A DNA stretch of 64,000 nt from a virus (IMGVR_UViG_3300013121_000033:128001-192000), one strand, 5' to 3'. Shown: positions 279 to 49,494, counted from the stretch's first letter. Program-made: numbers and translations. The notes: generated by a model not told the origin, from the letters alone.

Positions 279-328
279 GCTTCGGAAAGTCGGGCGGTGG
301 GGTTGACTCGGGTGGTACCGTGGCCCTC

Positions 329-376
329 GTGCGTTCCCGTCTCCAACAGCGTCGCTGGCCTCAGCCACCGCTCTAG
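329..376 (+). CDS. leaderless leader peptide MRSRLQQRRWPQPPL of Pro/Trp/Gln tRNA operon
   Basis: TACCGT -10 at 316-321, GTG 7 nt later; Gln/Trp/Pro-rich; 351-376 pairs with 443-469. Confidence 0.75.
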   Translation: MRSRLQQRRWPQPPL

Positions 377-488
377 CTCCACCGGAACGCGCCCAAGATC
401 ACCCGAGCGTCCCGGCGGAGCGGAAGCCCGCACGGGGCTCTCTTGGAGTGGTGGCCGAAGCCAGCCGACAAGGGACCCCCGGACACCA

Positions 489-564
489 CGGGGTGTAGCC
501 CAGCGGCCAGGGCACCTGCTTCGGGAGCAGGGGATCGGGAGTTCGAGTCTCCCCACCCCGACCA
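489..564 (+). tRNA. tRNA-Pro(CGG)
   Basis: cloverleaf, loop TTCGGGA, GTTCGAG T-loop, encoded CCA. Confidence 0.95.
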
Positions 565-583
565 GGTCGCCCCACCGAAACGA

Positions 584-656
584 AGGGGTGTAGCTCAGCG
601 GCGAGAGCAGCGGCTTCCAAACCCGCGTGTCGGGGGTTCGAATCCCTCCACCCCTG
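584..656 (+). tRNA. tRNA-Trp(CCA)
   Basis: cloverleaf, loop TTCCAAA. Confidence 0.92.
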
Positions 657-660
657 CTGA

Positions 661-733
661 TGGCCCGTAGTTCAACTGGCGGAACGCCCGACTTTGGATC
701 GGGAGGTTGCAGGTTCGAGCCCTGCCGGGCCAG
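661..733 (+). tRNA. tRNA-Gln(TTG)
   Basis: cloverleaf, loop CTTTGGA. Confidence 0.93.
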
Positions 734-1132
734 CTACACCGACGCTGCGCGTGCGCGGTCGTTCTCGTGGGTGACGTCGCAGGCGGGGCACTGGCCTTCG
801 GGTTTGATGTCGCGGGTCAGGTGGTTGTGGCGGGTCGGGTCGACCCTGCCTTGGATCGAGATGGGGACGGCGCTCTTGAGGAACGAGAGCAGCTTCGCAG
901 CGGTGTGTTCCATGTCGCTGACGCTGCGCCTCTCCTCGATGTCTATGGACAGGCGGCGGGCCTTGCGGAACGCGGCACCGAGGGACGCCATGTCGAGGGC
1001 GCCGTGGACGACGACGTTGCGGCCGAGGGGGGCGTCACCGGGGTCCTCGTTGATCGCGGCGGCCAGGTCGCGTGGCGACCAGGGACCGGGGTCGTCGACC
1101 TCGATGAGCAGGATGCGGCGGGGCTTGTCCAT
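734..1132 (-). CDS. hypothetical protein (MDKPRR...)
   Basis: TAACGT -10 8 nt upstream of ATG 1132; C-terminal CPAC. Confidence 0.65.
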   Translation of the reverse strand: MDKPRRILLIEVDDPGPWSPRDLAAAINEDPGDAPLGRNVVVHGALDMASLGAAFRKARRLSIDIEERRSVSDMEHTAAKLLSFLKSAVPISIQGRVDPTRHNHLTRDIKPEGQCPACDVTHENDRARAASV

Positions 1133-1143
1133 GGGCGGTGACG

Positions 1144-1404
1144 TTACAGGTCCGGGTCGTCCACTGCGCCGCCTTCCCATGAGGCGATGTCGGATGCGAC
1201 GTCGAACAGTCCCATGGCGACGTGGTCGGAGACGTTCGGGGTGTGGTAGTGGGTTGTGTAGTAGGTGGAGCCGTCCGGCATCACCCACGCTGCGATCACG
1301 GCGTAGTCGCCGAGCAGGCCATCCTCCGGGGTGGTGCCGTAGGCGGCGGCGTGGTTGACGATCGCGGTGCGGAGCGCTTCGTCGACGATCGGCTGCTCAT
1401 CCAT
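1144..1404 (-). CDS. hypothetical protein
   Basis: ORF with GC3-rich codons; TAGCGT -10 just upstream. Confidence 0.7.
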   Translation of the reverse strand: MDEQPIVDEALRTAIVNHAAAYGTTPEDGLLGDYAVIAAWVMPDGSTYYTTHYHTPNVSDHVAMGLFDVASDIASWEGGAVDDPDL

Positions 1405-1442
1405 CCGCAGGGACGCTAGCGGCGGTCGACTAGAACGACGGG

Positions 1443-2432: not shown

Positions 2433-2599
2433 GCCGCGACGGGGACGGAGGTACGGCGTCCGAGCGGCGGGCTCTCCGTGCCGTCGGCGTACACGAGGAC
2501 GACGTGGCTGCCGTCGACGAGGACGTCGATCACGAGTCTCGGGCCGTGCCGGGTGAGGACGACGTCGCCGGGGTCGATGAGCCAGGCGCGGCGAGTCAC
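2429..2599 (-). CDS. small hypothetical protein (MTRRAWLIDPGDVV...)
   Basis: GTGA overlap with helicase stop; 56 aa; absent from ORF track. Confidence 0.65.
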   Translation of the reverse strand: MTRRAWLIDPGDVVLTRHGPRLVIDVLVDGSHVVLVYADGTESPPLGRRTSVPVAA

Positions 2600-5500
2600 C
2601 GGAACAACGGGATGACGTTGCCGCCATCATCATCGCCTTCGTCGGGTTCGGCGGGCGTCGTAGGGATCGGTTCCCCCGCCTGTTCCAACACGGCACGAGC
2701 GAGCATCTTGACGCGGTCGGCGTCGACCTCCATGAGCGGCGTGATCCGCTCGATCGACGGGTCCTCGATCGGTTCCGCCTGCTGCTTCTTCACTCCCAAC
2801 ACCTCGATCATCGGCAGGTCGGACCCGACATCGGACGTAAGGAAGTACGCGAGGACCGGATGGTTCTCCTGACCGGGCCGATTCAATCGGCCAATGCACT
2901 GCGCATGCATCGACGGTGTCCAGTCGAGTTCGCCGAACACGCCGACGTGGCAGACGTCTTGGAGCCCGTTGAGCCCGGCACCGGACCGCAAGCTCATGAT
3001 GAACACGGCGGAGCCGCCTTCGTTGTTCGGGCGGCGGAACCTGTCGAGAGCGTCGCGTTTCTGTGTGTCCGACTCTGCACCAGTGAACTTGACCGGCCGA
3101 TGCTTCGCCAACCGTTCCATCCAGATGTCGTAGCACGCGTGGTGCCATCCCCAGAGGACGACTTTGTCGACCGATTCGAGTAGTAGCTCAACGAACGCTG
3201 CGACGTATGGGGCCTTCGCGATGCCGGTTGCTTGGCGGAGGCGGACGTCCAACTCGCCTGCGGCCTGCCACCGGTCCGTCGTGGGTGTCTCTTGGGAGAG
3301 GATGAACCGGGCGAGTTCCGCGGCGTTGCCGGAGAGTTGGTCGTAGACGTCGATGTCGTGGTCGACGACCTGTTCGATGCGGAGCGGTTCGATCCCGGGG
3401 AGTTTCACCCCGACCATGACCCCGGAGTCCCGGAGGAACGAACCGAGCGCAGCGGGGTTGGCGACACGGGGCTTGCCGCCGTAACTCGACCCGCACCATT
3501 CGCGCAGGAACTCGTGTCGTTCGCCGAGCGCGTCGGGGCGGACGATGCTGTAAATCTCCCAGAGGTCGCCGCCGTAGTTCGTTACTGGTGTCGCGGTGTT
3601 GTGGACGAGCACTCCGTCAGCGACGAACGAGGGGTGTCCTACCATCTCTAGGTCGTACACCACGTCCGGGCTTTCGAGGTCGGCCTCAACTGAGCGGACA
3701 GCGGCTTCTTTGAGCTTGTTTCGCCCCCAGTCGTATCTGACTCGGTTACCTCGCCAACCGAAATTGTCGCCGGACTCGGCATGCGCTGACCAGTTGACTG
3801 AGAACGCGTTTCTTGTCCCTACGATCTTCCGTCCATGGGCGTCAGCCCCGCCCGCTCCTGTCCCGGTCCGGCAAGACAGGCTGCCTTGGGCGCCCAAGCT
3901 TCGGAGCAGGCTGAGCAGGGACGTGGCGAGGGGTTTCGAGACGGTCGTGTAGTACCGACGACCGTCTCGACCCACACTGCCGTCGCTATCAACCAGTCCT
4001 CGGAGTAGTTCGCGACGAGCCGTTTCGGGCCACGAGATGATCCACTCACCTGGGATGAACTTGTCGTAGCAGTTGGCGCCTCTGGTCGTGCGGCGCAGCA
4101 TCTCGGAGAACAGAGGATGACTGAATCGCACTTCGACGCTTCGGCCGTTGCCCGGCCGCAACTTGGGTTCGAGGGCGACATGTGGCAGGTTGGCGACCAT
4201 GTCCATCATGTGCTCAGCAAGGGCGTCCTCGACGGCGAGCCCGACGCGGGTGCCGTCCAACCAGCCGTCGCCGAGGTAGAAGCCCAAGAGGTAGGCCCAG
4301 TCGCTCAAGTTCACAGATGCGGCGATCCATCGGTGCCCCCGACCGATGCCCTGGTATGCGCCGGTCGGCGGAGGGAGAAGTGCCGCATGTTGGCGGTAGA
4401 TGTCGGCTGGCAGACGGGGGCCGAACTTGGCTTCTTTGTGGAAGTTCTGCCATTGCCACGCTGTGACGCCGATGTCGTGTCGGGTGATACCAGCGGTGTC
4501 GACGACGACTTGGCCTCGGACGAGGTCGGCAGCAAGGTCGGCGAAATCGAAGGGCTGTTCCGCTACGGCAGCCCAGCCGTTCCCGTCGTCGCCAGCGAGC
4601 CGGTCCCCGGGGGTGAGCCCGTCAGCGCGGACAAGGTCGAGCCCGCGAGCGGCAACGCGGTACACAGAGTGTTCATCGGTGAGCGTAAGGCGACCACTCG
4701 GAACGCGGAGCGTCGTCGTGGTGGTGTCGCACCGGTGGCGGAGGAAGGTGCGAACTGGCTTCCAGCCGAACCTCTCCCCAGTCCACCCCCGCGACCTGAC
4801 ATCAAGGTGTTCCACTCGAAACAGTTCGTGGATGCCCCAACATTCTGGCGCCACTTCTTTCGCCACAAGTCGCGTCGCTTCCTCGATAGTCCCTACCCAC
4901 CCCGTGCCGAACGGACCACCTATCATCTCGACCACGCTGTCTGGACCGACGCTCAGGCCGACGACGTAGTTGGCTTTGTCGGCGATCGTCGCGGCGGCGG
5001 TGCCTTTCACGGTCGAGGTGCCGTTGCGGAGTTCCTGGACTTCGTCGAACACGACGGAACGGATCGCCCCTGCGAGATGCTGCGACCAGCCGCCGAGCTT
5101 CGAGTAGGTCGTGACGTACACGTCGGGTGGCCGGACGTGGCGTCGTCCGAGCCGGGTGCGCATCGGGTCGTACGGTGTGCCCTTCGTGACGACGTGGACG
5201 TGGAAGTCGGGCCACGTCGCCTTGATCTCGTTGTACCACTGGTGTTGGAGGTGGGGGGCGGCGACCACCAGGCCGGGGAGGGCGTCCGGGTTCCGGAACG
5301 TGAGCGACCCGCTATAGGACTTACCGGCTCCGAGTGAATCGGTGATGAGTAGCCGCTTGACGACCGAGACGATGTCGGCGTTCGTCCGCTGGTGATCCCA
5401 TCGTGGGGCGCGGGCCGGGATGCGGAAGTCGCCGTCGACGGGGTGTCCAGCGAAGATCGAGACGATCTGGTCGCCGATCCATCGTTGCCGGTCGGCTACC

Positions 5501-5721
5501 GCGGTCAGGTGCGCTAGGTCGTCGGCGCCGACGTCAAGCGGCCAGCGGATCAGGGACCACTCGATGTCGAGCGCGACATCGTCGGACTCGGCGACAACGA
5601 TCGTCCCGGAACGAGTCGCTAACGCTCGTGGGAACAGGCGCTTGAGACGGACCGCGACGTGTGGTTCGACGTCGAACACCCAATAGGTGTCCTCGCGGGT
5701 GAGGGTCCCGTAGGTGCGCAT
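2596..5721 (-). CDS. SNF2-family helicase containing an intein
   Basis: DSLGAGKS, DEVQ, L-TATP motif III, SLRSGAGLNGLQ, QCIGRLNRPGQ; ATG 5721 after TAGCAT. Confidence 0.92.
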   Translation of the reverse strand: MRTYGTLTREDTYWVFDVEPHVAVRLKRLFPRALATRSGTIVVAESDDVALDIEWSLIRWPLDVGADDLAHLTAVADRQRWIGDQIVSIFAGHPVDGDFRIPARAPRWDHQRTNADIVSVVKRLLITDSLGAGKSYSGSLTFRNPDALPGLVVAAPHLQHQWYNEIKATWPDFHVHVVTKGTPYDPMRTRLGRRHVRPPDVYVTTYSKLGGWSQHLAGAIRSVVFDEVQELRNGTSTVKGTAAATIADKANYVVGLSVGPDSVVEMIGGPFGTGWVGTIEEATRLVAKEVAPECWGIHELFRVEHLDVRSRGWTGERFGWKPVRTFLRHRCDTTTTTLRVPSGRLTLTDEHSVYRVAARGLDLVRADGLTPGDRLAGDDGNGWAAVAEQPFDFADLAADLVRGQVVVDTAGITRHDIGVTAWQWQNFHKEAKFGPRLPADIYRQHAALLPPPTGAYQGIGRGHRWIAASVNLSDWAYLLGFYLGDGWLDGTRVGLAVEDALAEHMMDMVANLPHVALEPKLRPGNGRSVEVRFSHPLFSEMLRRTTRGANCYDKFIPGEWIISWPETARRELLRGLVDSDGSVGRDGRRYYTTVSKPLATSLLSLLRSLGAQGSLSCRTGTGAGGADAHGRKIVGTRNAFSVNWSAHAESGDNFGWRGNRVRYDWGRNKLKEAAVRSVEADLESPDVVYDLEMVGHPSFVADGVLVHNTATPVTNYGGDLWEIYSIVRPDALGERHEFLREWCGSSYGGKPRVANPAALGSFLRDSGVMVGVKLPGIEPLRIEQVVDHDIDVYDQLSGNAAELARFILSQETPTTDRWQAAGELDVRLRQATGIAKAPYVAAFVELLLESVDKVVLWGWHHACYDIWMERLAKHRPVKFTGAESDTQKRDALDRFRRPNNEGGSAVFIMSLRSGAGLNGLQDVCHVGVFGELDWTPSMHAQCIGRLNRPGQENHPVLAYFLTSDVGSDLPMIEVLGVKKQQAEPIEDPSIERITPLMEVDADRVKMLARAVLEQAGEPIPTTPAEPDEGDDDGGNVIPLFR
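3598..4953 (-). mobile_element. intein (452 aa) with LAGLIDADG endonuclease in helicase motif III
   Basis: Ser1 SVGPDSVV; TLTDEH block B; LLGFYLGDG and LLRGLVDSDG; VYDLEM...VLVHN/T. Confidence 0.92.
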
Positions 5722-5738
5722 GCGGGCGGCGATGCTAC

Positions 5739-6335
5739 CTACAACCCGCCGCCGACATAGATGACGGTGAGGGTGCAGGGGCCGACCGTTCCGGGGAGAC
5801 GCCGGTGCGTGACGCGGGTCGTGACAACGACCAGGTCGGTGAGCCGCGGGTCCTTCGAGTAGCGGAGTAGCTGCGCGAGTAGCGTCGTGTCCGACCCTTT
5901 GACCTTCACCTCGACGCCGACGGTGCCGTCGACGACGAAGTCGATGCGGTCCCTCGGGGTGAGGCGCACTTCGCGTTGGTAGGGGAGCGCGGCGGCGTCG
6001 AACGCTTCGGCGAGCCCGGCTTGGAGGTCGTGTTCGCTGGCGTAGCTGTACTTCCACGAGCGCACCGCGGCGACGACCGCCGCACGGGGGTCACCGGCGA
6101 GGTGGGCGGGCCGGTGGGTGTCGTCGACGTACGCGCCATAGATCGACGCGACCGACCGGCGGAAGTCGATCCAGTCGGACAGGGTGGTCGGCCCGGGGCG
6201 GCAGTCGAGGCACCCGTCCGCCGTGGCGGTGTGGATGTCGACGCCGAGCAGTGAGAACCGGGCGACGGTGTACCCGTCCGGGGAGTCGACCCACACGGTA
6301 CGACCATCGGACCGGATCAGAGGGTCGATCGCCAC
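5739..6335 (-). CDS. hypothetical protein with PD-(D/E)XK nuclease-like C-terminus
   Basis: EHDLQ...RIDFVVDGTVGVEVK...QLLRY. Confidence 0.65.
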   Translation of the reverse strand: MAIDPLIRSDGRTVWVDSPDGYTVARFSLLGVDIHTATADGCLDCRPGPTTLSDWIDFRRSVASIYGAYVDDTHRPAHLAGDPRAAVVAAVRSWKYSYASEHDLQAGLAEAFDAAALPYQREVRLTPRDRIDFVVDGTVGVEVKVKGSDTTLLAQLLRYSKDPRLTDLVVVTTRVTHRRLPGTVGPCTLTVIYVGGGL

Positions 6336-8448: not shown

Positions 8449-8484
8449 GCCCGCACCCTACCGTCACGTTATGGTCACGTCAAC
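8446..8484 (-). promoter_or_regulatory. MDND promoter cassette copy 2
   Basis: GTTGACGTGACCATAAC...TAGGGT...ATGGACAAC. Confidence 0.85.
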
Positions 8485-9939: not shown

Positions 9940-9976
9940 GGACACACCATACCCGCCACGTTGTTGTCACGTCAAC
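9937..9976 (-). promoter_or_regulatory. MDND promoter cassette copy 3
   Basis: GTTGACGTGACAACAAC...TATGGT...ATGGACAACGAC. Confidence 0.85.
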
Positions 9977-24158: not shown

Positions 24159-24194
24159 GGCCGCACCATACCCTCGTGTTGTTGCCACGTCAAC
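24156..24194 (-). promoter_or_regulatory. MDND promoter cassette copy 4
   Basis: GTTGACGTGGCAACAAC...TATGGT...ATGGGCAACGAC. Confidence 0.85.
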
Positions 24195-26359: not shown

Positions 26360-26449
26360 ACATGGCAGAGCCTCCGTCACCCCGTGGGGATCAGGAGGCT
26401 CTGCCCGCCGTGTCTATTTGGTATGAGGATGGCAGGCGTTCCTGCCAAG

Positions 26450-26525
26450 TGGCACGAGGGGGATTCGAACCCCCGACCTCCGGGTTATGAGCCCGGCGAG
26501 CACAACCAGACTGCTCCATCGTGCT
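26450..26525 (-). tRNA. initiator tRNA-fMet(CAT)
   Basis: loop CTCATAA, GGG/CCC in anticodon stem, 1:72 mismatch. Confidence 0.92.
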
Positions 26526-26562
26526 CCGACGGATGATAGCGGTTCCGTCACTTCGTCACTCG

Positions 26563-27087
26563 TCATTTCCACTTCGGGGTGTTCAACTCCGCCATCCGGC
26601 CGAGACAGGCGCCTTGGCCGATCTGTGTCCAGGTGACCGGCCCGTACGTCGTGACCGGGGCGACGGCTCGGACGGCGCTGTCGGCGGCTTCGATGTCGTC
26701 GGGGATGCCCTCGAAGAGCCGGTAGTACCGGGCCGACACGATCTCCTGAACCCATGGTCCCGGTGGGTCGATCAGGCGGCGACCGGCTACTTCGATCGGT
26801 TCCACGATCGGGGTCGGCGGCCTGGCTTCGTAGTGCACCCAGAACCGCAGCGGTCGGTCCAGGTCCGTGATCCCGTTGTGGACGACCAGATCGTCGAGGT
26901 CATCGGCAGGGATACGGATGCCCCACACCTCTCCGGCGAGGTAGACGGGAAGGTCACCGGTCGGGGCGACGCCACGACAGACTCCACACGCGCCAACGGC
27001 GAGCGACGACGGGTCGGTGAACGCCAGGCTTGTGACCAGGCATGTGCACCGGTGGAACGGCACAGCGAGCCCGTACCTCGACTTCAT
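26563..27087 (-). CDS. hypothetical protein
   Basis: TGATG overlap with rtcB stop. Confidence 0.65.
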   Translation of the reverse strand: MKSRYGLAVPFHRCTCLVTSLAFTDPSSLAVGACGVCRGVAPTGDLPVYLAGEVWGIRIPADDLDDLVVHNGITDLDRPLRFWVHYEARPPTPIVEPIEVAGRRLIDPPGPWVQEIVSARYYRLFEGIPDDIEAADSAVRAVAPVTTYGPVTWTQIGQGACLGRMAELNTPKWK

Positions 27088-28253
27088 CAGGTCCCCTTGT
27101 AGTTGAGCAGAGCGGTGAGGCGGTGCAACGGGCGGACCAGGTCGGCCTGTGCGTCCATCACGTTCTCGATGTCCTTGTAGGCGCGGGGGTCCTCGTCGAT
27201 CAGCTTTGCAGCGTCGCTGTCGTTCCACGCCTTCCCGGCCATCGCGTCGCGCAACCCGTCGAGATCGAGGTTGCGGCGCGCCTGGTTGCGGGACATGCGA
27301 CGCCCGGCGCCGTGCGAGCACGACTCGTAGCTGGCCGGGTTCCCGAGCCCTTCGACGATGTAGCTCCCGGTCGCCATCGACCCGGGGATGATCCCGAGGT
27401 CGCCGACCCCGGCACGGATCGCGCCCTTCCTTGTGACCCACAGGTCGACACCGTGGTGGTGCTCGCGGGTGCAGTAGTTGTGGTGGCACTGGATCGTGCG
27501 GACGGGTTCGAAGTGGTAGCCGACCGCTCCGGCGACCTGAACGAGGACGGCGTCGAGCATCATCTGCCGGTTCAACGCGGCGTAGTCCTGCGCCCACAGC
27601 ATCGCCGCGATGTACGCGTCGAACTCCGGGGTGCCCTCTACGAGGTAAGCGAGGTCAGGGTCGGGGATGTCCGCGAGCGCAGCGCCCATCGCCCTCTCTG
27701 CGGCGGCGACGTGGACGTCTGCCAACTGCTTGCCAACCCCGCGGCTCCCCGAGTGCAGCACAACCCACACCCGGTTGCGTTCGTCGGCGCACACCTCAAC
27801 GAAGTGGTTGCCGGACCCGAGCGACCCGATCTGTGTGTCCATCGCCGTTTCCATCCGGTCGGTCATCCCCTCAGGGCGGCGGGCGAACAGGTCGGCAACT
27901 TCGGCGCTGTGGGTGCGCCGGTCGTGACCGCGGCCCGCCCCGGCAGGGACGACAGCGGCGATCGCCGAGTGGAGCTTCCCAAGGTCGTCGGGGAGCAGGT
28001 CCACCGTGAACGGACACTCGACGGCCCCCATCCCACATCCGATGTCGACGCCGACGGCGGACGGGATGACCGCGGCTTCGGTCGCGATGACCGATCCGAC
28101 GGTCGCGCCAAACCCGAAGTGTGCGTCGGGCATGAGCGCGATCGGTTCGTGGACCACGGGGAGTGACGCGCTGTCGGCGGCCTGGCCGATCGTCTTGTCG
28201 TCGAGGTCGGCTGCCCAGGAGAGGACGTTCGGGCGGATGAAGGTGGGGGCCAT
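27087..28253 (-). CDS. rtcB: RtcB RNA ligase
   Basis: MPDAH, VGVDIGCGM, GSGNHF, HSGSRG, HHNY, IIPGSM, SHGAGR, KG C-terminus. Confidence 0.96.
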   Translation of the reverse strand: MAPTFIRPNVLSWAADLDDKTIGQAADSASLPVVHEPIALMPDAHFGFGATVGSVIATEAAVIPSAVGVDIGCGMGAVECPFTVDLLPDDLGKLHSAIAAVVPAGAGRGHDRRTHSAEVADLFARRPEGMTDRMETAMDTQIGSLGSGNHFVEVCADERNRVWVVLHSGSRGVGKQLADVHVAAAERAMGAALADIPDPDLAYLVEGTPEFDAYIAAMLWAQDYAALNRQMMLDAVLVQVAGAVGYHFEPVRTIQCHHNYCTREHHHGVDLWVTRKGAIRAGVGDLGIIPGSMATGSYIVEGLGNPASYESCSHGAGRRMSRNQARRNLDLDGLRDAMAGKAWNDSDAAKLIDEDPRAYKDIENVMDAQADLVRPLHRLTALLNYKGT

Positions 28254-28270
28254 CTGGCGAGCCTTGCAGG

Positions 28271-28852
28271 TCAGGTCGGTTCGGTTCCGAGTGATTTGAC
28301 GGTCGCGTGGACGGTCGTCATGTCGACTGTCCAGCGTGCCGGGGCGGTGGGGACGGTCCCGGGTTGCTCGGGGCGCCACACCCACGAGACGTTCTTGTGG
28401 GTGACGGTGGCGTCCGTGGATGCCGGGTCGTCCGGCGCGAACGAAGGACCGAACACGAGCGCGAGGCACGCTGCCTCTGTTTCGAGCGCGCCAGCCTGCG
28501 CTCTCGACGCGGCGAGGTGCGCGGTGAGCTTGGCGACCTGATCCGAGAGGTCCGCTACGACCGCTTCCGTTTCGGACGCCTTGATGCGCTCAGCCGCGAG
28601 GGCGCCGATCATCGCTTCGTACACGTCGTCGTACTCGGTGAGAGCACGGCGCATGGCGCCGATCAGCGCCTCTCTGTCGGCCACGAACCCGTTGCGGGCA
28701 ACGGTCGGCTTGTACCGCTCCCACAGCGTCAGCAGGGCGTACTTGAGGTCGCTACGGGCGTGGGCTTCCTCCGGGTTCTTCTCGGGGACCGCTGGTATCG
28801 CTGGCGCCTTGAACCCCGTACGAAGGACCGCTTTGACGTTGTCGTTGACCAT
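28271..28852 (-). CDS. hypothetical coiled-coil protein (MVNDN...)
   Basis: starts at cassette ATG. Confidence 0.75.
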   Translation of the reverse strand: MVNDNVKAVLRTGFKAPAIPAVPEKNPEEAHARSDLKYALLTLWERYKPTVARNGFVADREALIGAMRRALTEYDDVYEAMIGALAAERIKASETEAVVADLSDQVAKLTAHLAASRAQAGALETEAACLALVFGPSFAPDDPASTDATVTHKNVSWVWRPEQPGTVPTAPARWTVDMTTVHATVKSLGTEPT

Positions 28853-28888: not shown

Positions 28889-28943
28889 GCTCGGAAAGTG
28901 ATTGACGAGGGTTGGGGGAACCCGGCAAGGTGGATACCTCAAT

Positions 28944-29017
28944 GGGCCGGTAGCTCAAGTTGGTAGAGCACCTGCTTTGCAAGCAGACGGTTGTGGGTTC
29001 GAGGCCCATCTGGTCCA
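28944..29017 (+). tRNA. tRNA-Ala(TGC)
   Basis: cloverleaf, G3:U70. Confidence 0.93.
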
Positions 29018-29034
29018 CTAGCTAAGGAAACTTT

Positions 29035-29107
29035 GGGGTTGTAGCTCAGACGGTAGAGCGCTCGCCTGGCTTGCGAGAGGTCCCCGGTTCGACTCCGGGT
29101 AACTCCA
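29035..29107 (+). tRNA. tRNA-Ala(GGC)
   Basis: G3:U70, loop CTGGCTT. Confidence 0.9.
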
Positions 29108-29108
29108 C

Positions 29109-29181
29109 GGACGTGTAGCTCAGCCGGTAGAGCAGCACCATGACAGGGTGAAGGCCCCCGGTTCGAACCCGGGCATGTCCA
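29109..29181 (+). tRNA. tRNA-Val(GAC)
   Basis: cloverleaf, loop ATGACAG. Confidence 0.9.
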
Positions 29182-29186
29182 CTCGC

Positions 29187-29261
29187 AGGCGCGTAGCTCA
29201 GATCGGCTAGAGCAGCACTCTCACATGGTGAAGGTCGACGGTTCGAATCCGTCCGTGCCTA
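29187..29261 (+). tRNA. tRNA-Val(CAC)
   Basis: cloverleaf, loop CTCACAT. Confidence 0.9.
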
Positions 29262-29831
29262 CTTGACGGCGGGAGATCGTCGTTCGTGCACGGTGTAGAA
29301 CTCGGACAGCGGGACGTTCGTCCACATCGACGCGTCGAACACGGTCGACGTGAACCCGGGGTGGGGGTTGGGGTTCTCGACGGTGGACCGGTCGCAACGC
29401 CACCGGCACCACAGGTACCCGTCGGAGTCGAACACCTCGGCGGGGTAGTGGATCGTGTAGGAGCCGTCGCGTCGACCGCTCGGAACCCACAACTCGTCGG
29501 GCATCCCGACGAGGTCACGGACCGATGGCCGGGGGGGCATGTCGCGGAGGCGCCGGTCGTTCGCCTTCCCCGTCTTGGTTCGACGGTCCGGGACGACGTA
29601 GTAGCTGCCGTCGGCGAGTGGTCCGGCGCGCCGCCACCCCTGCGGGATGGTGCCGTCGTCGGATGCAGGGAACCCTAGGAGGCGGTCGGCGCTGCGGGTG
29701 ATGCCGTCGGCGCCGACCTCGGCAGCCCATCCGAACGCTGCCTCGTTCCAAGCGTCGAGGTCGGCGTGGAGTTTCGCCCACCCGTCGAGTACGGCAGGGT
29801 GGTTCGACTTGTAGGCGCTGTCCTCGTTCAT
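29259..29831 (-). CDS. hypothetical protein
   Basis: ATGA overlap; codon bias. Confidence 0.7.
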   Translation of the reverse strand: MNEDSAYKSNHPAVLDGWAKLHADLDAWNEAAFGWAAEVGADGITRSADRLLGFPASDDGTIPQGWRRAGPLADGSYYVVPDRRTKTGKANDRRLRDMPPRPSVRDLVGMPDELWVPSGRRDGSYTIHYPAEVFDSDGYLWCRWRCDRSTVENPNPHPGFTSTVFDASMWTNVPLSEFYTVHERRSPAVK

Positions 29832-34872: not shown

Positions 34873-34909
34873 GACCACATGGTACCGCCGACGTTATGGT
34901 CACGTCAAC
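34870..34909 (-). promoter_or_regulatory. MDND promoter cassette copy 7
   Basis: GTTGACGTGACCATAAC...TACCAT...ATGGACAACGAC. Confidence 0.85.
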
Positions 34910-36272: not shown

Positions 36273-36348
36273 TGGTGCCCCTGGTAGGACTCGAACCTAC
36301 GCACGCGGCTTCGTAGGCCGCTGCTCTCTCCAACTGAGCTACAGGAGC
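36273..36348 (-). tRNA. tRNA-Arg(ACG)
   Basis: cloverleaf, CCA. Confidence 0.95.
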
Positions 36349-36349
36349 T

Positions 36350-36425
36350 TGGTGGGTCAGGTGGGGCTCGAACCCACGACCGTCCGATTAAAAGTCGGTG
36401 GCTCTACCAACTGAGCTACTGGCCC
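36350..36425 (-). tRNA. tRNA-Lys(TTT)
   Basis: loop CTTTTAA, CCA. Confidence 0.95.
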
Positions 36426-36429
36426 GAGG

Positions 36430-36513
36430 TGGGTGCGGTGGGATTCGAACCCACGAAGGCTTGCGCCGCTGGATTAAGAGTCCAGACCCGTTGACCGCTT
36501 GGGTAACGCACCC
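36430..36513 (-). tRNA. tRNA with Lys(CTT) anticodon and long variable arm
   Basis: loop CTCTTAA, V-arm GGCGCAAGCC, class II-like D arm. Confidence 0.88.
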
Positions 36514-36517
36514 GTGT

Positions 36518-36594
36518 TGGTGCCCCCGGCCCGGTTCGAACGGGCGACCTTCCCCTCCGGAGGGGGACGCTCTATCCGACTGAGCTACGAGAGC
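36518..36594 (-). tRNA. tRNA-Arg(CCG)
   Basis: loop CTCCGGA, CCA. Confidence 0.93.
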
Positions 36595-36613
36595 GAGACT
36601 GCTGTGTTGCCCG

Positions 36614-36687
36614 CTGCGCCCCTGGGCCTCGAACCCAGAACATCCGCCTTAACAGGACGGTCCCCCTGCCAGTAGGGGCCGAGCGCA
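36614..36687 (-). tRNA. tRNA-Asn(GTT), atypical D region
   Basis: loop CTGTTAA, G73; G at position 8. Confidence 0.82.
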
Positions 36688-36725: not shown

Positions 36726-37124
36726 ATGCCCTACAAAGACCGCGAGGCGCAACGCGCCTACCAGCGTGAGTGGATGGCGCGCCGTCGCCGCGAGTGGATC
36801 GAGGCTCACGGCCCGTGTGTCGACTGCGGGTCGTGGACCGACGACCTGGAAGTCGACCACGCCGATCCCGCTTCGAAGGTGATGAATCCCACGTTGGTCT
36901 GGTCGCGACGAGCCGCAGTCCGCGACGCCGAGTTGGCGAAGTGCGTCGTCCGCTGCCACAACTGCCATCTCCGCAAGACATCTCATGAGCGGGCACCTCA
37001 GCACGGAACGGACAACATGTACGGCAAACACGGTTGCCGCTGCGATCCATGCCGAGCGGCTAGGGCGAGGGCTAAGAAGGCGAATCGTGACAGACGGAAG
37101 GCGTTGGGCCTAGCCCGCCAGTAG
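36726..37124 (+). CDS. HNH endonuclease inside tRNA operon (antisense)
   Basis: CVDC...LEVDH...CVVRCHNCH; leaderless TACCGT promoter. Confidence 0.88.
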   Translation: MPYKDREAQRAYQREWMARRRREWIEAHGPCVDCGSWTDDLEVDHADPASKVMNPTLVWSRRAAVRDAELAKCVVRCHNCHLRKTSHERAPQHGTDNMYGKHGCRCDPCRAARARAKKANRDRRKALGLARQ

Positions 37125-37143
37125 ACGGCCTAAACGCCTAATC

Positions 37144-37219
37144 GGTGACCGACCGGGTTCGAACCGGCACGTCGCACGGGGACACAACCCGCGGCTCTAC
37201 CTGTTGAGCTACGGTCACC
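37144..37219 (-). tRNA. tRNA-His(GTG)
   Basis: G-1:C73, loop TTGTGTC. Confidence 0.9.
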
Positions 37220-37252: not shown

Positions 37253-37363
37253 TCAGGCCCCGGCGGGGTTGCGATGTCGCAGCCCGCGCCGTCGCTTTCG
37301 GCGCGCAGCAGCGTCGACAAGTTTGTCGCGGAGCGCAGCAGCGAAGGCGTCGGCGGAGGTCAC
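37253..37363 (-). CDS. leaderless leader peptide MTSADAFAAALRDKLVDAAARRKRRRGLRHRNPAGA of His/Asn/Arg/Lys tRNA operon
   Basis: TACCGT -10 at 37371-37376; codons AAA, AAG, CGC, CGA, CGG, CAT, AAC. Confidence 0.72.
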   Translation of the reverse strand: MTSADAFAAALRDKLVDAAARRKRRRGLRHRNPAGA

Positions 37364-37823
37364 GCCCGACACGGTACCGGGACAGGTGCGGCGTGTCGAC
37401 CGATTTCTCGGGGTGGTGTCGGGCGCCGCGGTTCGCGCACGCCTGCTCCGTCGCCGCCACGGCCGGGGGTGAACACGGCAACGACGGGACCGACCCGTCT
37501 CATAGATGCCACGTCTGCGACTGCGGCGGCGAGCGCAGAAAGACGGACGTCAGCGGCGGCCGGTCGGCGGGTCGCTACGGTCACGGTGACCTCGGACCCG
37601 GCTGTGAGGAACAAACGGAGCTTCGCTGCTTCGTAGCGGGGCAGCCCCTCGATGGAGGGGCGGACCGTCATCTGCTCGATCCGGCAGCCTCGATCTTGTA
37701 GACCTCGCGGAGCGGGATGCGCCACGCCTGCCGTCGCGTCACGGTCCCGTCTGCGTTGACCGACGTGATCGTCGTCTCTTGCGGGAGTGCGGAACTGGTG
37801 TTGCGGGTCATCGCCGCGTGACG

Positions 37824-38666: not shown

Positions 38667-38702
38667 GACCCCACCCTACCCGAATGTTGTGGTCACGTCA
38701 AC
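38664..38702 (-). promoter_or_regulatory. MDND promoter cassette copy 8
   Basis: GTTGACGTGACCACAAC...TAGGGT. Confidence 0.85.
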
Positions 38703-39056: not shown

Positions 39057-39092
39057 GTGCACACCCTACGTGCCCGTTGTCGTCACGTCAAC
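39054..39092 (-). promoter_or_regulatory. MDND promoter cassette copy 9
   Basis: GTTGACGTGACGACAAC...TAGGGT. Confidence 0.85.
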
Positions 39093-39270: not shown

Positions 39271-39342
39271 AGCGCCCCCCGGGAGTCGAACCCGGTTTCC
39301 ACGCTTTGCAGGCGCAGCCCTCGCCGTCCGGTGCCGAGGCGC
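39271..39342 (-). tRNA. tRNA-Cys(GCA)
   Basis: loop CTGCAAA, U73; atypical D arm. Confidence 0.85.
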
Positions 39343-39349
39343 ATCGCTA

Positions 39350-39404
39350 CCTTCGACCTCACCCTTATCAGGGGTGCGCTCTAAACCTGCTGAGCTACCT
39401 GCCG
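39350..39404 (-). pseudogene. truncated tRNA-Ile(GAT) (no T arm or 3' acceptor strand)
   Basis: intact D arm and CACCC-CTGATAA-GGGTG, then AGGTCG with no TTCGA. Confidence 0.8.
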
Positions 39405-39405
39405 T

Positions 39406-39481
39406 TGGAGCGACCGACCGGATTCGAACCGGTACAACCAGGGTGGGGTCCTGGCGTGCTAACCGTTCACACTACGGTCGC
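39406..39481 (-). tRNA. tRNA-Gly(CCC), C33
   Basis: GCG acceptor, U73 CCA, loop ACCCCAC. Confidence 0.87.
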
Positions 39482-39496
39482 AGAGGTTGTGTGCGT

Positions 39497-39570
39497 TGGA
39501 GCGGATCACCGGAATCGAACCGGTTCTTCCAGGGTGGCGTCCTGGTGTGCGGCCTTCACACCCGACCCGC
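39497..39570 (-). tRNA. tRNA-Gly(GCC), C33
   Basis: GCG acceptor, U73 CCA, loop ACGCCAC. Confidence 0.85.
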
Positions 39571-39571
39571 A

Positions 39572-39648
39572 TGGCGCCACCGAAGGGACTCGAACCCTCG
39601 ACCTTCCGCTCGACAAGCGGCTGCTCTCACCATCTGAGCTACGGCGGC
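39572..39648 (-). tRNA. tRNA-Asp(GTC)
   Basis: loop TTGTCGA, G73 CCA. Confidence 0.92.
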
Positions 39649-39667
39649 ATAGATGAAGTTGTCAGGG

Positions 39668-39740
39668 TGCCCTCGCCAGGATTCGAACCCGGGCTCGTAC
39701 CGTTAGGACCGGTCTGCTCTATCCGCTGAGCTACGAGGGC
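39668..39740 (-). tRNA. tRNA-Arg(CCT)
   Basis: loop GTCCTAA, A20. Confidence 0.9.
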
Positions 39741-39801
39741 GTGACGGTCGATGTTCCTGTTCTGTGCCTTCGCTTCACGATTCGTCGTTCCTTTCAATCG
39801 G

Positions 39802-39879
39802 TGGAGCCGGTGGTCGGACTTGAACCGACAACCTGACGTATACAAGACGCCTGCTCTATCCAAGTTGAGCTACACCGGC
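39802..39879 (-). tRNA. tRNA-Thr(TGT)
   Basis: GCC acceptor, loop CTTGTAT. Confidence 0.92.
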
Positions 39880-39881
39880 AT

Positions 39882-39957
39882 TGGAGCCCTCGCCCGGGAT
39901 CGAACCGGGGACCTCATCCCTACCATGGATGCGCTCTACCAACTGAGCTACGGGGGC
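39882..39957 (-). tRNA. tRNA-Thr(GGT)
   Basis: loop ATGGTAG. Confidence 0.94.
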
Positions 39958-39958
39958 G

Positions 39959-40034
39959 TGGAGCCTGTGACCCGGATCGAACGGGTGACCTCCGCTTTAC
40001 GAGAGCGGCGCTCTACCAACTGAGCTACACAGGC
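39959..40034 (-). tRNA. tRNA-Thr(CGT)
   Basis: loop CTCGTAA. Confidence 0.95.
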
Positions 40035-40053
40035 AACGATGTTTTGCCTTGCG

Positions 40054-40129
40054 TGGTCCAGGTCGGAATCGAACCGACGACCCCTCGCGTTTCAGGCGAG
40101 TGCTCTCTCCGAGTCTGAGCTACTGGACC
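40054..40129 (-). tRNA. tRNA-Phe(GAA)
   Basis: loop CTGAAAC. Confidence 0.93.
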
Positions 40130-40157: not shown

Positions 40158-40250
40158 TCAGCGACAACGTCCGCCGCCGATCCCGGTGGTATCGGTGATA
40201 CCTCGGGGACCGGCGGTGGGGAATGTCCTGATCGTCAGCGTCGAACGCAT
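40158..40250 (-). CDS. leaderless leader peptide MRSTLTIRTFPTAGPRGITDTTGIGGGRCR of the Phe-Thr3-Arg-Asp-Gly2-Ile-Cys tRNA operon
   Basis: TAGTGT -10 at 40258-40263, ATG 7 nt later; has a codon for every downstream tRNA. Confidence 0.78.
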   Translation of the reverse strand: MRSTLTIRTFPTAGPRGITDTTGIGGGRCR

Positions 40251-40284
40251 GACAGCGACACTACGACACCCGACCGGTGAACGT

Positions 40285-40532: not shown

Positions 40533-40808
40533 TCAGTCGGTGGGTGTCTCGTTGAGGCCGTCGTTCGCCGACCGGTACATGTCGTAGATGTCCTTGCACG
40601 CCTGGCACATCGGCAACCGGCGCGGGTCGCGGGACGGCACCCAGACGTGGCCGCACAACGCTTCGAGCGGGGTCCCCTCGATGCGGGCAGTGAGCACCTT
40701 GTCCGCCGCGTTCTCACCGGGACGGGTCTTGACGATGTGAGCGACCGGGCCGTCCTCAGTCGCAGTCGTATCGGACGGGATCGTCGAAGGGGACTCGATG
40801 GTGGTCAA
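40533..40808 (-). CDS. DUF3039-domain protein
   Basis: AHIV...ALCGHVWVPSRDP...CQACKDIY. Confidence 0.85.
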   Translation of the reverse strand: MTTIESPSTIPSDTTATEDGPVAHIVKTRPGENAADKVLTARIEGTPLEALCGHVWVPSRDPRRLPMCQACKDIYDMYRSANDGLNETPTD

Positions 40809-43328: not shown

Positions 43329-43364
43329 GCCCACACCCTACCGTTCTGTTATGGTCACGTCAAC
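43326..43364 (-). promoter_or_regulatory. MDND promoter cassette copy 10
   Basis: GTTGACGTGACCATAAC...TAGGGT. Confidence 0.85.
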
Positions 43365-47068: not shown

Positions 47069-47106
47069 GGCGCACACTGTACCCGGCTTGTTGTGGTCAC
47101 GTCAAC
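47066..47106 (-). promoter_or_regulatory. MDND promoter cassette copy 11
   Basis: GTTGACGTGACCACAAC...TACAGT. Confidence 0.85.
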
Positions 47107-47113
47107 ATTGTTG

Positions 47114-47155
47114 TGCGGGTGGAGGGAGTCGAACCCTCACGCCTTCCGGCGTCGA
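47114..47155 (-). pseudogene. 3' half of a tRNA-Leu-like class II tRNA
   Basis: V-arm ACGCCGGAAGGCGT, T arm GAGGGTTCGACTCCCTC, CACCCGC-A. Confidence 0.75.
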
Positions 47156-47583
47156 CTGGCGTTTCGCTTGTCATTCCACTCTCGCTTCGCCCGGCTACAG
47201 ATGTCGCAGCAGCAGCGCCGCTTCTGCCACGCGTACATCGTGCCGTGGGCGAACCCCTTGTCGATCCCCCTGAACGGGCTCGCCTTGCCGAGATTGGTCT
47301 TTCTGTTGTTCTCCGCTGGGGTCAACAACTGATAGTTGTCGATCCGATCGTCCATCGGGTCATCGTTGACGTGGTCGACGTGCTCGTCGGGGGCCAGCGT
47401 TCGCCCGAGATGCTGTGTCATCTGCCAGCGGGCGTAGGACATGCTGGTCCTGCGACCGTTTGCCAAGTGGATGACGACCTGCCGTCGTGGTCGGCTGCCG
47501 CCCGGACGCACAACGTACGGACCGTAAACCTTTGTGATCGCCACATCGAACGGATTGTGCATTGGGATGGCGAGTTTACTCAC
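47137..47583 (-). CDS. HNH homing endonuclease
   Basis: LGRTLAPDEHVDHVNDDPMDDRIDNYQLLTPAENNRK. Confidence 0.9.
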   Translation of the reverse strand: MSKLAIPMHNPFDVAITKVYGPYVVRPGGSRPRRQVVIHLANGRRTSMSYARWQMTQHLGRTLAPDEHVDHVNDDPMDDRIDNYQLLTPAENNRKTNLGKASPFRGIDKGFAHGTMYAWQKRRCCCDICSRAKREWNDKRNASRRRKA

Positions 47584-47640: not shown

Positions 47641-47687
47641 GGTTCCGGGACCGGAAGGCGCGGCTGAATGCTCGTGCGCTCCGGTCC

Positions 47688-47726
47688 CTACGGAAGTAGG
47701 CGGCGGCGATACAAGCGTCGGGTCAC
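47688..47726 (-). CDS. leaderless leader peptide MTRRLYRRRLLP of Tyr/Leu tRNA locus
   Basis: TAGAGT -10 at 47735-47740; rare TTG, TAT, CTA, CTT codons; hairpin follows. Confidence 0.62.
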   Translation of the reverse strand: MTRRLYRRRLLP

Positions 47727-47825
47727 GGCAGAGAACTCTACTCGTCGAGGTCGCCGGTGTCGACGGGGTTGAGTTCGTCGGCGTGTTCCTGACAGAGGTC
47801 TAATCGAGACATGACCATGGTTCGT

Positions 47826-47864
47826 GTTGACGTGACCACAACAGTCGTGTAGGGTGTGGACATG
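47826..47864 (+). promoter_or_regulatory. MDND promoter cassette copy 12
   Basis: GTTGACGTGACCACAAC...TAGGGT...ATGGACAACGAC. Confidence 0.88.
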
Positions 47865-48164
47865 GACAACGACACGCTGATGCAAGCCCGGTGGGACGCC
47901 TTCATGGCGGACTGTGCAGCCGCGGCGGCCCGCGGGAAGGACTGGGACGCTGTCGGTGCGGCGTGGCGGGCCGAGCATCCCGACACCCGGTTCACCGACC
48001 TGCCCTACATGGAGCAGGTTCACCTGATCGCCGGGCTCGACGGGTTCTATCCGGACTTGATCGACGACGCCGTGGCGGTGTTCCTCGCTGACGACGAGGA
48101 CTTGGACTACGACATGGCTCTGCCGGTGGAGGCCGCGGCGCAGGCTGCCGCCAACGCCTACTGA
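47862..48164 (+). CDS. hypothetical protein (MDNDTLMQ...)
   Basis: cassette ATG. Confidence 0.75.
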   Translation: MDNDTLMQARWDAFMADCAAAAARGKDWDAVGAAWRAEHPDTRFTDLPYMEQVHLIAGLDGFYPDLIDDAVAVFLADDEDLDYDMALPVEAAAQAAANAY

Positions 48165-48221
48165 TCCGAAGGGTTCCGGGGGGGGGGTTGATACTGCCGT
48201 CTTGGAGCCCGAAGGCGAGAT

Positions 48222-48259
48222 TCAGAGCCCCTGGTGGACTCCCGCCCAACCGGGGGCTC
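48222..48259 (+). terminator. hairpin downstream of 47862-48164
   Basis: AGAGCCCCTGG...CCGGGGGCTCT. Confidence 0.5.
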
Positions 48260-48280
48260 TCTCGCGTATGGTCACCCGTC

Positions 48281-48718
48281 ATGGCGTACAAGCAGGCATG
48301 CAAGAAGCAGTCGCTCCGGTTCTACGCGGCCCTCGGGATCGTCCCCGGCTACCCGGGTGGTGCGGGCGAGAGCATGCGACGCGATCCATGGTGGACGGAG
48401 GGGATCGTGGCGGAGGAGTGGAACGAGGCCGCCGCCGAGTCCGCCGCGACGTTCCGTGTGTACCCGCCGTCAGTGGTCGTGCAGGTGGCGACGGTCGGCT
48501 ACCAGATCGAGGGTGACGGTCAACGGGCGGAACAGGTGGTGACGTTGACCGGAACGTTGAACCCTCACTGGGGTGACGACCAGGAGGCGTGGCGTGCCGC
48601 GGTCCTGGACGTCGTTCAGCGGCTCGGTGACCGGTTCGGGCAGGAGACAGTCCAGGTGAACTTCGAAGAGGTCGAGGTCGTCTACTACCAGCGGCACCCG
48701 GCAGCAGTGACGGTGTGA
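48281..48718 (+). CDS. hypothetical protein
   Basis: TATGGT -10 then ATG; GIVPGY...GTLNP...FGQETVQV. Confidence 0.75.
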   Translation: MAYKQACKKQSLRFYAALGIVPGYPGGAGESMRRDPWWTEGIVAEEWNEAAAESAATFRVYPPSVVVQVATVGYQIEGDGQRAEQVVTLTGTLNPHWGDDQEAWRAAVLDVVQRLGDRFGQETVQVNFEEVEVVYYQRHPAAVTV

Positions 48719-48719
48719 G

Positions 48720-49337
48720 ATGGGATGCGAGCATTCGCTGCTGGTGAACGGCATCTGCCGGGATTGCGAACCGGACGAACCCGGGCCTCACCAGCGGGGA
48801 CGGATCGTCGTCAATGACCGCCACGTCCACTACATCGACCGTGACGGTCCGGGCTGCTACTACTGCCGACGAGACGCCACGTCGCTGACGTTCGACCACG
48901 TCGTCCCTCGCGCCGTGTTCCGTGCTGGCCTCGCCCCGATCCCTGCCGGGCGGCTCAACAAGGTGCTGGCATGCCGGAAGTGCCAGAAAGACAAGGGCGC
49001 TCGACTCGATCTCGATTGGGACCCGCGGTGGTACGACCATGGCGGCCTGTACCGGCCGACACCCGAGGACCGGTTCGTTCGAGGCGTCCCCGACGACCTG
49101 CGCATCCTGCTCCCGTTCTCGAACGGGCCGCACAGTGTGCGCGCCTTCCGGGTCCTCTACCGCGACACCCTGGACTCTGAGGGCGGATGGAGTGGGGCTC
49201 GAACCCACACGGACGCTGCGAACGCCCCAACCGTTTTCGAGACGGCGGCCGGTAGTCCATCACTCGGCTTATCCATCCAGGCGGAGGGGGCGAGGATCGA
49301 ACTCGCAGTGAACTCCACAGAGCCCACACCCGGGTAG
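48720..49337 (+). CDS. HNH endonuclease (3' end antisense to two tRNA-Ser)
   Basis: CYYC...TFDHVVPR...NKVLACRKCQKDKG. Confidence 0.8.
   Translation: MGCEHSLLVNGICRDCEPDEPGPHQRGRIVVNDRHVHYIDRDGPGCYYCRRDATSLTFDHVVPRAVFRAGLAPIPAGRLNKVLACRKCQKDKGARLDLDWDPRWYDHGGLYRPTPEDRFVRGVPDDLRILLPFSNGPHSVRAFRVLYRDTLDSEGGWSGARTHTDAANAPTVFETAAGSPSLGLSIQAEGARIELAVNSTEPTPG
49184..49278 (-). tRNA. tRNA-Ser(CGA)
   Basis: GGA acceptor, long V arm, G73. Confidence 0.92.
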
Positions 49338-49373
49338 CAACCGGGCTGCCTTGCCAGCCGTAGCGACCCCTCC
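49282..49373 (-). tRNA. tRNA-Ser(GCT)
   Basis: loop TTGCTAC, long V arm, G73. Confidence 0.92.
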
Positions 49374-49406
49374 GAGAACTTGCGGGGTCGCGCGTGACGT
49401 CGCCGT

Positions 49407-49454
49407 CTAGCTCGACCCCTCGGGGGAACTCGATGACAGCGACGAACGGATCAC
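49407..49454 (-). CDS. leaderless leader peptide MIRSSLSSSSPEGSS of tRNA-Ser operon
   Basis: TATCGT -10 at 49462-49467; 8 of 15 codons Ser. Confidence 0.8.
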   Translation of the reverse strand: MIRSSLSSSSPEGSS

Positions 49455-49494
49455 GGCCGGAACGATACGCCCACCGTCCCGGCCGTGTCCACGA

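Follow-up and report, generated by a model that had tools for sequence, protein, structure and literature searches.

Multivalent leader-peptide attenuators are well known from Escherichia coli and Salmonella, with thrL, ilvL, hisL, trpL and the pheM leader of the pheST synthetase operon as examples. The role of the tRNAs carried by phages, codon compensation or counter-defence, is still debated, and to our knowledge it is largely unknown how phages control their own tRNA genes. Here we describe tRNA operons of the phage sequence IMGVR_UViG_3300013121_000033 (a single sequence of 225,159 bp, ~67% GC), all but one of them located in a stretch of 64,000 nucleotides (nt) corresponding to bases 128001-192000 (the window), which are headed by short ORFs (open reading frames) rich in the codons that their own tRNAs read. 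We consider it probable, with moderate confidence, that these leaders are ribosome-read sensors of decoding capacity which control the tRNA output of their own operon, that is, cis-acting "codon inventory" ORFs.

Among actinobacteria, the upstream ORF (uORF) of Mycobacterium tuberculosis ilvB1 is an attenuator (PMC13236596). The phage leaders resemble ilvB1 and the enterobacterial leader peptides in being 5′ short ORFs enriched in codons that report aminoacyl-tRNA supply, with several amino acids per leader, and in being embedded in stable, potentially alternative RNA folds. On the other hand, they would regulate the tRNAs themselves and not biosynthetic enzymes or synthetases, they list at least one codon per operon tRNA down to the isoacceptor level, their start is predicted to be leaderless, and they are devoid of the intrinsic terminator formed by a hairpin plus a U-tract. 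A second relative is found in Mycobacterium smegmatis, whose leaderless polycysteine short ORFs (sORFs; the "Cys ribulon" of Canestrari et al.) are attenuators based on pausing at specific codons (10.1101/834739). As in that case, a putatively leaderless sORF of actinobacterial type heads the operon, codon-specific pausing would be the signal, and one logic recurs at several loci; the genes behind the phage leaders, however, are untranslated tRNAs with no ribosome-binding site to unmask, and therefore the phage leaders cannot work like the Cys sORFs. Finally, T-boxes are also leader RNAs that gauge the state of specific tRNAs and control genes of the translation apparatus, but they bind the tRNA directly through one specifier codon and without a ribosome, whereas the phage signal is spread in frame over many codons. 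Full-text literature searches turned up no account of tRNA genes controlled by a leader ORF, in agreement with the first-pass annotation of this DNA, which had considered such control of phage tRNA genes undescribed.

ARAGORN predicts 26 tRNAs in the genome, 23 of which lie within the window, and 20 are confirmed by Rfam; the genes are arranged as small blocks with a grouping by amino acid. Five tRNA operons, four in the window and one outside it, each start with a TAnnnT hexamer followed, after 7 nt, by an ATG or GTG ORF of 15-36 codons, while a sixth leader with 8-nt spacing and 12 codons heads a decayed locus. All leaders are found behind a -10 box and, where tRNAs follow, 28-112 nt 5′ of the first tRNA and on the same strand. 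We refer to these loci as C0 to C5. C0, located 6.8 kb upstream of the window, carries TGG-TACCGT, 7 nt and an ATG, and its leader encodes MLRRREHRERTGRRPQRQV (cognate codons GAA, GAG and CAG twice) in front of tRNAs Gln/Glu/Glu. C1, on the plus strand, has the -10 box TACCGT at 316-321, with TGG directly 5′ of the hexamer and 7 nt before a GTG; the 15-codon leader MRSRLQQRRWPQPPL with its stop (329-376) contains CAA, CAG twice, TGG and CCG, and a structured spacer (377-488) separates it from tRNA-Pro(CGG), Trp(CCA) and Gln(TTG) at 489-734.

The remaining loci are on the minus strand. In C2, the -10 box TACCGT (37371-37376), with a -35-like TCGACA 17 nt upstream, is followed by a 36-codon leader (37253-37363) ending in RRKRRRGLRHRNPAGA before the stop and including AAA, AAG, AAC, CAT, CGG and CGC/CGA; the first gene is tRNA-His(GTG) at 37143-37219 and the others are tRNA-Asn(GTT), Arg(CCG), Lys(CTT), Lys(TTT) and Arg(ACG) at 36273-36687. 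C3 has TAGTGT at 40258-40263 with a -35-like TAGACG 18 nt upstream, and the 30-codon leader MRSTLTIRTFPTAGPRGITDTTGIGGGRCR plus stop (40158-40250), in which cognate codons, the rare AGG, ACA and TGT among them, make up 19 of 29. It precedes tRNA-Phe, three Thr, Arg(CCT), Asp, Gly(GCC), Gly(CCC), an Ile(GAT) and Cys(GCA) at 39272-40129. In C5, TATCGT (49462-49467; -35 TGGACA 18 nt upstream) precedes the 15-codon leader MIRSSLSSSSPEGSS plus stop (49407-49454), with 8 Ser codons of which 6 are readable by the operon's two tRNAs, Ser(GCT) and Ser(CGA) at 49181-49373. Lastly, C4 shows TAGAGT at 47735-47740, the -35 box TCGACA 17 nt upstream and the 12-codon leader MTRRLYRRRLLP plus stop (47688-47726), containing TTG, TAT, CTA and CTT. 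The five ORFs of the window thus agree in position and layout (TAnnnT, 7-8 nt, ATG/GTG, 12-36 codons) with those proposed in the first-pass annotation. Its list of downstream tRNAs also holds, except that in C3 the non-canonical Gly(GCC) and Cys(GCA) are called solely at relaxed ARAGORN thresholds, and that the "Ile" is a 5′ fragment of roughly 55 nt.

The layout of the leaders is that of ordinary genes of this phage. The genome contains 87 sites of the form TAnnnT-N6-8-RTG, the majority of which head long ORFs with a GC content at third codon positions (GC3) of 0.82-0.94, which indicates that leaderless mRNAs are the rule in this phage; about 60 genuine leaderless genes share the promoter-to-start geometry of the tRNA leaders. 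Many of the 87 sites are placed behind a repeated promoter module (see below), which is missing from the tRNA-leader promoters. A consensus promoter scan ignoring start codons recovered independently the C4 and C5 promoters with their -35 boxes TCGACA and TGGACA. In addition, the mature 5′ end of tRNA-Met (26449-26525, minus strand) is located exactly 7 nt past its -10 box TATCAT, a spacing that would fit a transcript whose +1 coincides with the A or G of the leader start codon. In mycobacteria, an ATG or GTG at the 5′ terminus is both required and enough for translation (PMC4633059). From promoter spacing and start codons we infer that transcription starts at the leader start codon and that the leaders are translated. 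The GC3 of the leaders (0.60-0.80) is lower than that of the real genes, and hence the leaders do not track the coding bias of the phage.

The codon content of each leader was scored against the tRNAs of its operon, with wobble pairing allowed and six-frame trinucleotide frequencies as the background. Cognate codons number 4 of 18 in C0 (expected 0.8; binomial p 0.0078), 5 of 14 in C1 (1.2; p 0.0042), 12 of 35 in C2 (7.1; p 0.037), 19 of 29 in C3 (7.7; p 1.3e-5) and 6 of 14 in C5 (0.9; p 1.2e-4), while mismatched leader/operon pairings are nearly all unremarkable by the same binomial measure. With a look-elsewhere correction, in which the best ORF in any frame within 250 nt upstream was compared with 3000 random genome windows, p becomes 0.014 (C0), 0.0057 (C1), 0.07 (C2), 0.0007 (C3) and 0.0047 (C5). 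The true leader/operon pairing ranks first among 120 permutations, also when only the tRNAs called by ARAGORN with default settings are used. Cognate triplets occur 46 times in frame as compared to 6 and 21 times in the two other frames, and none of the 24 downstream tRNAs is without a cognate codon in the leader of its operon, the probability of full coverage being 0.0013-0.11 per locus. The match extends to isoacceptors, given that the only leader with CAA belongs to the Gln(TTG) operon and the only one with AGG to the Arg(CCT) operon. These data confirm, on statistically robust grounds, that the leaders are enriched in the codons of their own tRNAs in a frame-specific and operon-specific manner, and both the enrichment (binomial p 1.3e-5 to 0.037) and the shuffled pairings bear out the proposed mirroring of downstream anticodons by leader codons.

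The pattern of codon-matched leaders recurs in a second phage. Mycobacterium phage StAugustine (PV251870.1), identified through a blastn match to the tRNA-Thr/Ile genes, contains two unannotated ORFs within its tRNA array. Leader A (TATGCT, 7 nt, ATG at L006 11262, beginning with MSGRRWQLPQQRNY) is directly 5′ of Trp/Asn/Gln/Lys/Lys (p=0.003). Leader C follows GGAAGGAG, a strong Shine-Dalgarno sequence, after 5 nt with an ATG and a 20-codon ORF, MRTRIIARPLVAPRRRYSRR plus stop, and precedes Thr(TGT)/Ile(GAT)/Arg(ACG)/Tyr(GTA)/Arg(CCG)/Arg(TCT). In leader C, 12 of 19 codons are cognate (p=5.8e-5), all 6 tRNAs are covered (chance 0.003), cognate triplets number 12 in frame versus 5 and 3 out of frame, and the fold has a z-score (z) of -2.7. 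That so short an ORF within a tRNA array carries a strong Shine-Dalgarno sequence provides independent evidence for selection on its translation. For calibration, the same automated pipeline was applied to seven other phages rich in tRNAs (LeBron, BRock, Sixama, Nanosmite, Rctr197k, ScoobyDoobyDoo and EGole), where it scored 109 tRNA units. The smallest best-ORF p in this set was 0.006, which indicates that the feature is sporadic and that the low p values obtained here are no artefact of the method.

These comparisons bear on whether the match could result from chance and post-hoc choice of ORFs in stop-poor, GC-rich DNA. Short ORFs and frames rich in Arg, Pro, Gly, Ser and Thr are indeed common at 67% GC, and C2 taken by itself is marginal. 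Nevertheless, corrected p values of 0.0007-0.07 at five loci, the rank of the true pairing, the fit of a locus outside the window (C0), the replication in StAugustine and the values reached by the 109 control units make this explanation hardly credible. An effect at the RNA level without translation, in which leader triplets pair with tRNA anticodon loops in a T-box-like or sponge-like manner or merely constitute a processing signal, would be compatible with the highly structured leaders and with the indirect nature of the case for their translation. Such an effect does not account for the excess of cognate triplets in a single frame in both phages, nor for ORFs which begin at the predicted +1 or, in StAugustine, behind a strong Shine-Dalgarno sequence. 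Moreover, an Rfam scan of the whole window together with permissive scans of two loci returned tRNA matches alone, with no T-box or other family. We regard this explanation as quite improbable.

The codon enrichment, the leaderless-gene geometry and the recurrence in StAugustine together point to a ribosome-read sensor. In such a mechanism, translation of the leader would begin at the 5′-terminal base of the transcript, in the manner of a leaderless mRNA, and its speed would report whether the cell can at that time decode the codons which the adjacent downstream tRNAs read. After reading the leader through to its stop, a ribosome would allow the formation of a leader/spacer fold aborting transcription within the 28-112-nt spacer, in a step that might be either hairpin-dependent or Rho-assisted, as proposed because of the missing U-tract. 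Stalling at a hungry cognate codon, on the other hand, would make the ribosome remodel the fold, and RNA polymerase could then enter the tRNA genes. Since the operon's own product would relieve the stall, each operon would be self-regulating. That stalling would switch the operon on is inferred by analogy with validated attenuators, among them the ilvB1 uORF (PMC13236596) and the Cys sORFs (10.1101/834739). Because each leader inventories its complete operon, an output at the level of the entire transcript, such as non-canonical or Rho-assisted premature termination, is more coherent than a control on the folding of the first tRNA. So understood, the leaders are a leaderless, terminator-less actinophage variant of the control principle of amino-acid operons, applied to tRNA genes.

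The leader RNAs form folds of higher stability than their dinucleotide shuffles, the z values being -4.86 (C1), -4.10 (C3), -3.79 (C2), -2.57 (C0), -1.25 (C5) and -0.66 (C4). Hairpins had been reported at each leader, with mutually exclusive pairings in several cases; they are substantiated at three leaders of the window (z -3.8 to -4.9) and are weak at C5 and C4; mutually exclusive pairings are possible. The stable folds link the leader ORF with the spacer (z down to -4.9), and the stop codon of the leader is located inside or at the foot of a hairpin. In C1, the first hairpin of the spacer starts from the stop codon with TAG-CTCC...GGAGC, a sequence common to C0 and C1, and the second ends in CUCUCUU; this tail and GUUCUC (C3, C5) are the sole pyrimidine tails.

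Several observations weigh against the sensor reading, and the first group of these concerns its output. Terminator scans of leaders and spacers detected no GC hairpin with a U-tract between any leader and the first tRNA, and the spacers of four of the five operons span only 28-38 nt. Furthermore, when 30 nt are masked to represent a ribosome that stalls or terminates, the fold model predicts an acceptor-stem switch for C0 and C5 and none for C1, C2 and C3, so that no consistent switch emerges. As a result, the earlier proposal of a stalling sensor that switches on the tRNAs is sustained in the part concerning ribosome-read sensing, by codon match, geometry and recurrence, and not in the part concerning the ON switch, given the missing terminator and the inconsistent masking models.

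These same results leave some room for a post-transcriptional output, in which the position of the ribosome gates the pairing of leader and spacer with the 5′ acceptor strand of the first tRNA, and thereby pre-tRNA folding, RNase P processing or transcript stability instead of transcription. Pairing with this strand is predicted with a probability of 1.00 in C3, 0.76 in C1, 0.69 in C0 and 0.46 in C5, early-stall masking raises the acceptor-stem probability from 0.10 to 0.90 (C0) and from 0.28 to 0.97 (C5), and the absence of a terminator in the scanned regions would be expected. However, C1, C2 and C3 are devoid of such a switch in the same model, the effect would be limited to the first tRNA even though the leaders contain codons for all tRNAs of their operons, and the values come from thermodynamic folding of GC-rich RNA, with no covariation to back them. 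We consider a post-transcriptional output unlikely.

A low probability is also given to leaders that are translated without being sensors, their translation merely protecting or activating the transcript, for instance against Rho, in a positive feedback or self-sufficiency circuit where codons for the operon's own tRNAs keep the leader translatable if host tRNAs are damaged. The codon match and the leaderless geometry would fit this possibility equally well. The spacers are mildly richer in C than in G (101 versus 74), and translated uORFs shape Rho termination in M. tuberculosis, according to a reference cited in PMC13236596. Yet a circuit requiring its own product to start would be a poor design for supplying missing tRNAs, most of the cognate leader codons (ACC, GGC, CGC, TCG) are common and normally read by host tRNAs, and a Rho loading site of typical size does not fit into the spacers.

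The second group of observations that the sensor reading has to accommodate concerns the distribution and the strength of the pattern. Enrichment in C2 is only marginal (p 0.037-0.07), and the surveyed set of seven phages provided no convincing case. StAugustine may not be a fully independent replicate, because its tRNA genes are the nearest database matches to those of the present phage, and the two modules may thus share ancestry, although their leaders do not align. Searches of phage, viral-contig and metagenome collections yielded no close relative with which conservation or covariation of the ORFs and pairings could be assessed. In addition, two tRNA clusters have promoters that abut the tRNAs without any leader. 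In the Met case (26449-26538, minus strand) the tRNA 5′ end follows TATCAT by 7 nt, and in the Ala/Ala/Val/Val case (28902-29262, plus strand; tRNAs at 28944-29262) TTGACG lies ~36 nt before the first tRNA, with no leader ORF. As a separate remark, the primary transcript of tRNA-Met may begin at the mature 5′ end without 5′ processing.

C4 represents the opposite exception, as a leader (L, Y, L and L among 11 codons) is present with no intact tRNA downstream. The region 3′ of it contains the anticodon-arm-like CAGC-CTGTAAA-GCTG (a GTA stem-loop), an HNH endonuclease gene in place of the tRNAs (47137-47583, minus strand) and a T-arm remnant (47122-47138). Of the arrangement first described for this locus, a leader followed by Tyr-like and Leu remnants, the leader, the stem-loop and the T-arm remnant are there; no tRNA is found, and the HNH gene occupies the site. 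The sequence would fit a decayed Tyr/Leu operon, since Leu and Tyr are exactly the tRNAs that the genome lacks (none was called by ARAGORN across the genome). An intron-containing tRNA at C4 was considered and rejected, as relaxed and intron-allowing ARAGORN runs gave implausible calls alone, and a permissive scan revealed neither a group I intron nor any other Rfam match at this locus. A further HNH endonuclease gene (36726-37124, plus strand; phrog_4234, E 1.3e-34) is inserted antisense between tRNA-His and the rest of C2, whose leader lists codons for all six tRNAs despite the insertion. HNH homing-endonuclease genes are thus found inside two tRNA loci, C2 and C4.

As to the biological purpose, phage tRNAs have been documented as counter-defence against host systems that cleave tRNAs (PMC10264068; PMC11555353, in the parts of these sources considered here). 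The present phage is similar to those cases in having a tRNA set of the kind thought to replace host tRNAs, and it also encodes an RtcB-type tRNA ligase (27087-28469, minus strand), a gene that provides only circumstantial context for a counter-defence role. The same parts of the two sources do not describe leader-ORF control of tRNA gene expression. A counter-defence purpose of the leaders is speculation, as nothing ties them to defence. Tentatively, and with more doubt than conviction, codon-inventory leaders could be a general phage device, closing for each tRNA operon a feedback loop in which the decoding capacity of the infected cell is gauged codon by codon. They would then sense host tRNA-cleaving defences or codon demand, and the actinophage form would combine leaderless translation with a non-canonical output (U-tract-less or Rho-assisted termination). 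If the sensor reading is true, this would be the first described case of tRNA supply feeding back on tRNA genes with the ribosome as the direct mediator; leader-peptide attenuation would be extended from amino-acid metabolism to the decoding machinery, and the leader codons would be a readable signature of the purpose of each tRNA block. The two leaders of StAugustine, a cultured phage, make the idea testable in M. smegmatis mc2 155.

The search for related loci covered several levels. In megablast and blastn searches of phage records, the tRNA loci gave tRNA-length matches alone, tblastn with the 1038-amino-acid (aa) and 945-aa proteins identified no close phage, and a search of viral and metagenomic contigs for related loci gave none. 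The 188-aa flanking protein is an orphan, the contigs that encode homologues of the 1038-aa protein (40-49% identity) have no tRNAs nearby, and the relatives of RtcB belong to low-GC phages without comparable leaders. The 17-mer promoter motif was found in two unrelated viral contigs only. Identical low-depth contigs occur in one activated-sludge metagenome study, with no variants, and no RNA sequencing run is listed as containing the phage. Among the surveyed phages, ScoobyDoobyDoo (MZ820085.1), a Mycobacterium phage of cluster-C1 type, displays at 5697-5810 (L018) the arrangement TTGACA-17-TACAGT, 7 nt and an unannotated leaderless 24-codon ORF (MFTTADTTRGMLERAPYRPWHKRV) directly before a 29-tRNA array; the codon-match test has no power there, because the array spans nearly all amino acids.

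Concerning the other content of the phage, the genes are predominantly on the minus strand, and the genome encodes a terminase-like protein besides RtcB. Inteins are present in an SNF2-like helicase gene (2596-6057, minus strand) and in a DUF5131 gene (53671-55860, minus strand), in both cases of the LAGLIDADG type. The protein of a DUF3039 gene (40533-40808, minus strand) is ~80% identical to proteins of Microthrixaceae and other actinobacterial metagenome-assembled genomes; the gene is probably host-derived and a hint at the host lineage, and on account of this similarity the host is probably an actinobacterium of the Acidimicrobiia.

The nucleotide at tRNA position 33 is almost universally U. 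The two Gly tRNAs of C3, (CCC) at 39406-39481 and (GCC) at 39497-39570 (minus strand), have anticodon loops A-C-NCC-A-C with a C at this position, while all remaining tRNAs of the phage carry T. Anticodon-loop changes allow phage tRNAs to escape nucleases (PMC10264068), and the C33 of the two Gly tRNAs may be relevant in this regard.

The repeated promoter module mentioned above consists of GTTGACGTGACCACAAC, ~7 nt, TAGGGT, 6-8 nt and ATG GAC AAC GAC. It occurs 14 times in the window as compared to 0.4 expected, including 262-278, 8468-8484, 9960-9976, 24178-24194, 34893-34909, 38686-38702, 39076-39092, 43348-43364, 47090-47106, 47826-47842, 62312-62328 and others, with further copies genome-wide. 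The module heads many otherwise unlike genes, whose proteins all begin with MDND(T/D), and its conservation extends through the first 4-5 codons, a pattern suggesting that it may be an operator or start module of leaderless genes. Finally, outside the window, at genome position 21999 (minus strand), a promoter-like TACCAT site with a tandem aagatc/aaagatc repeat (aagatctaaagatcttgagatccaaagatc) 5′ of it heads a 32-codon ORF.

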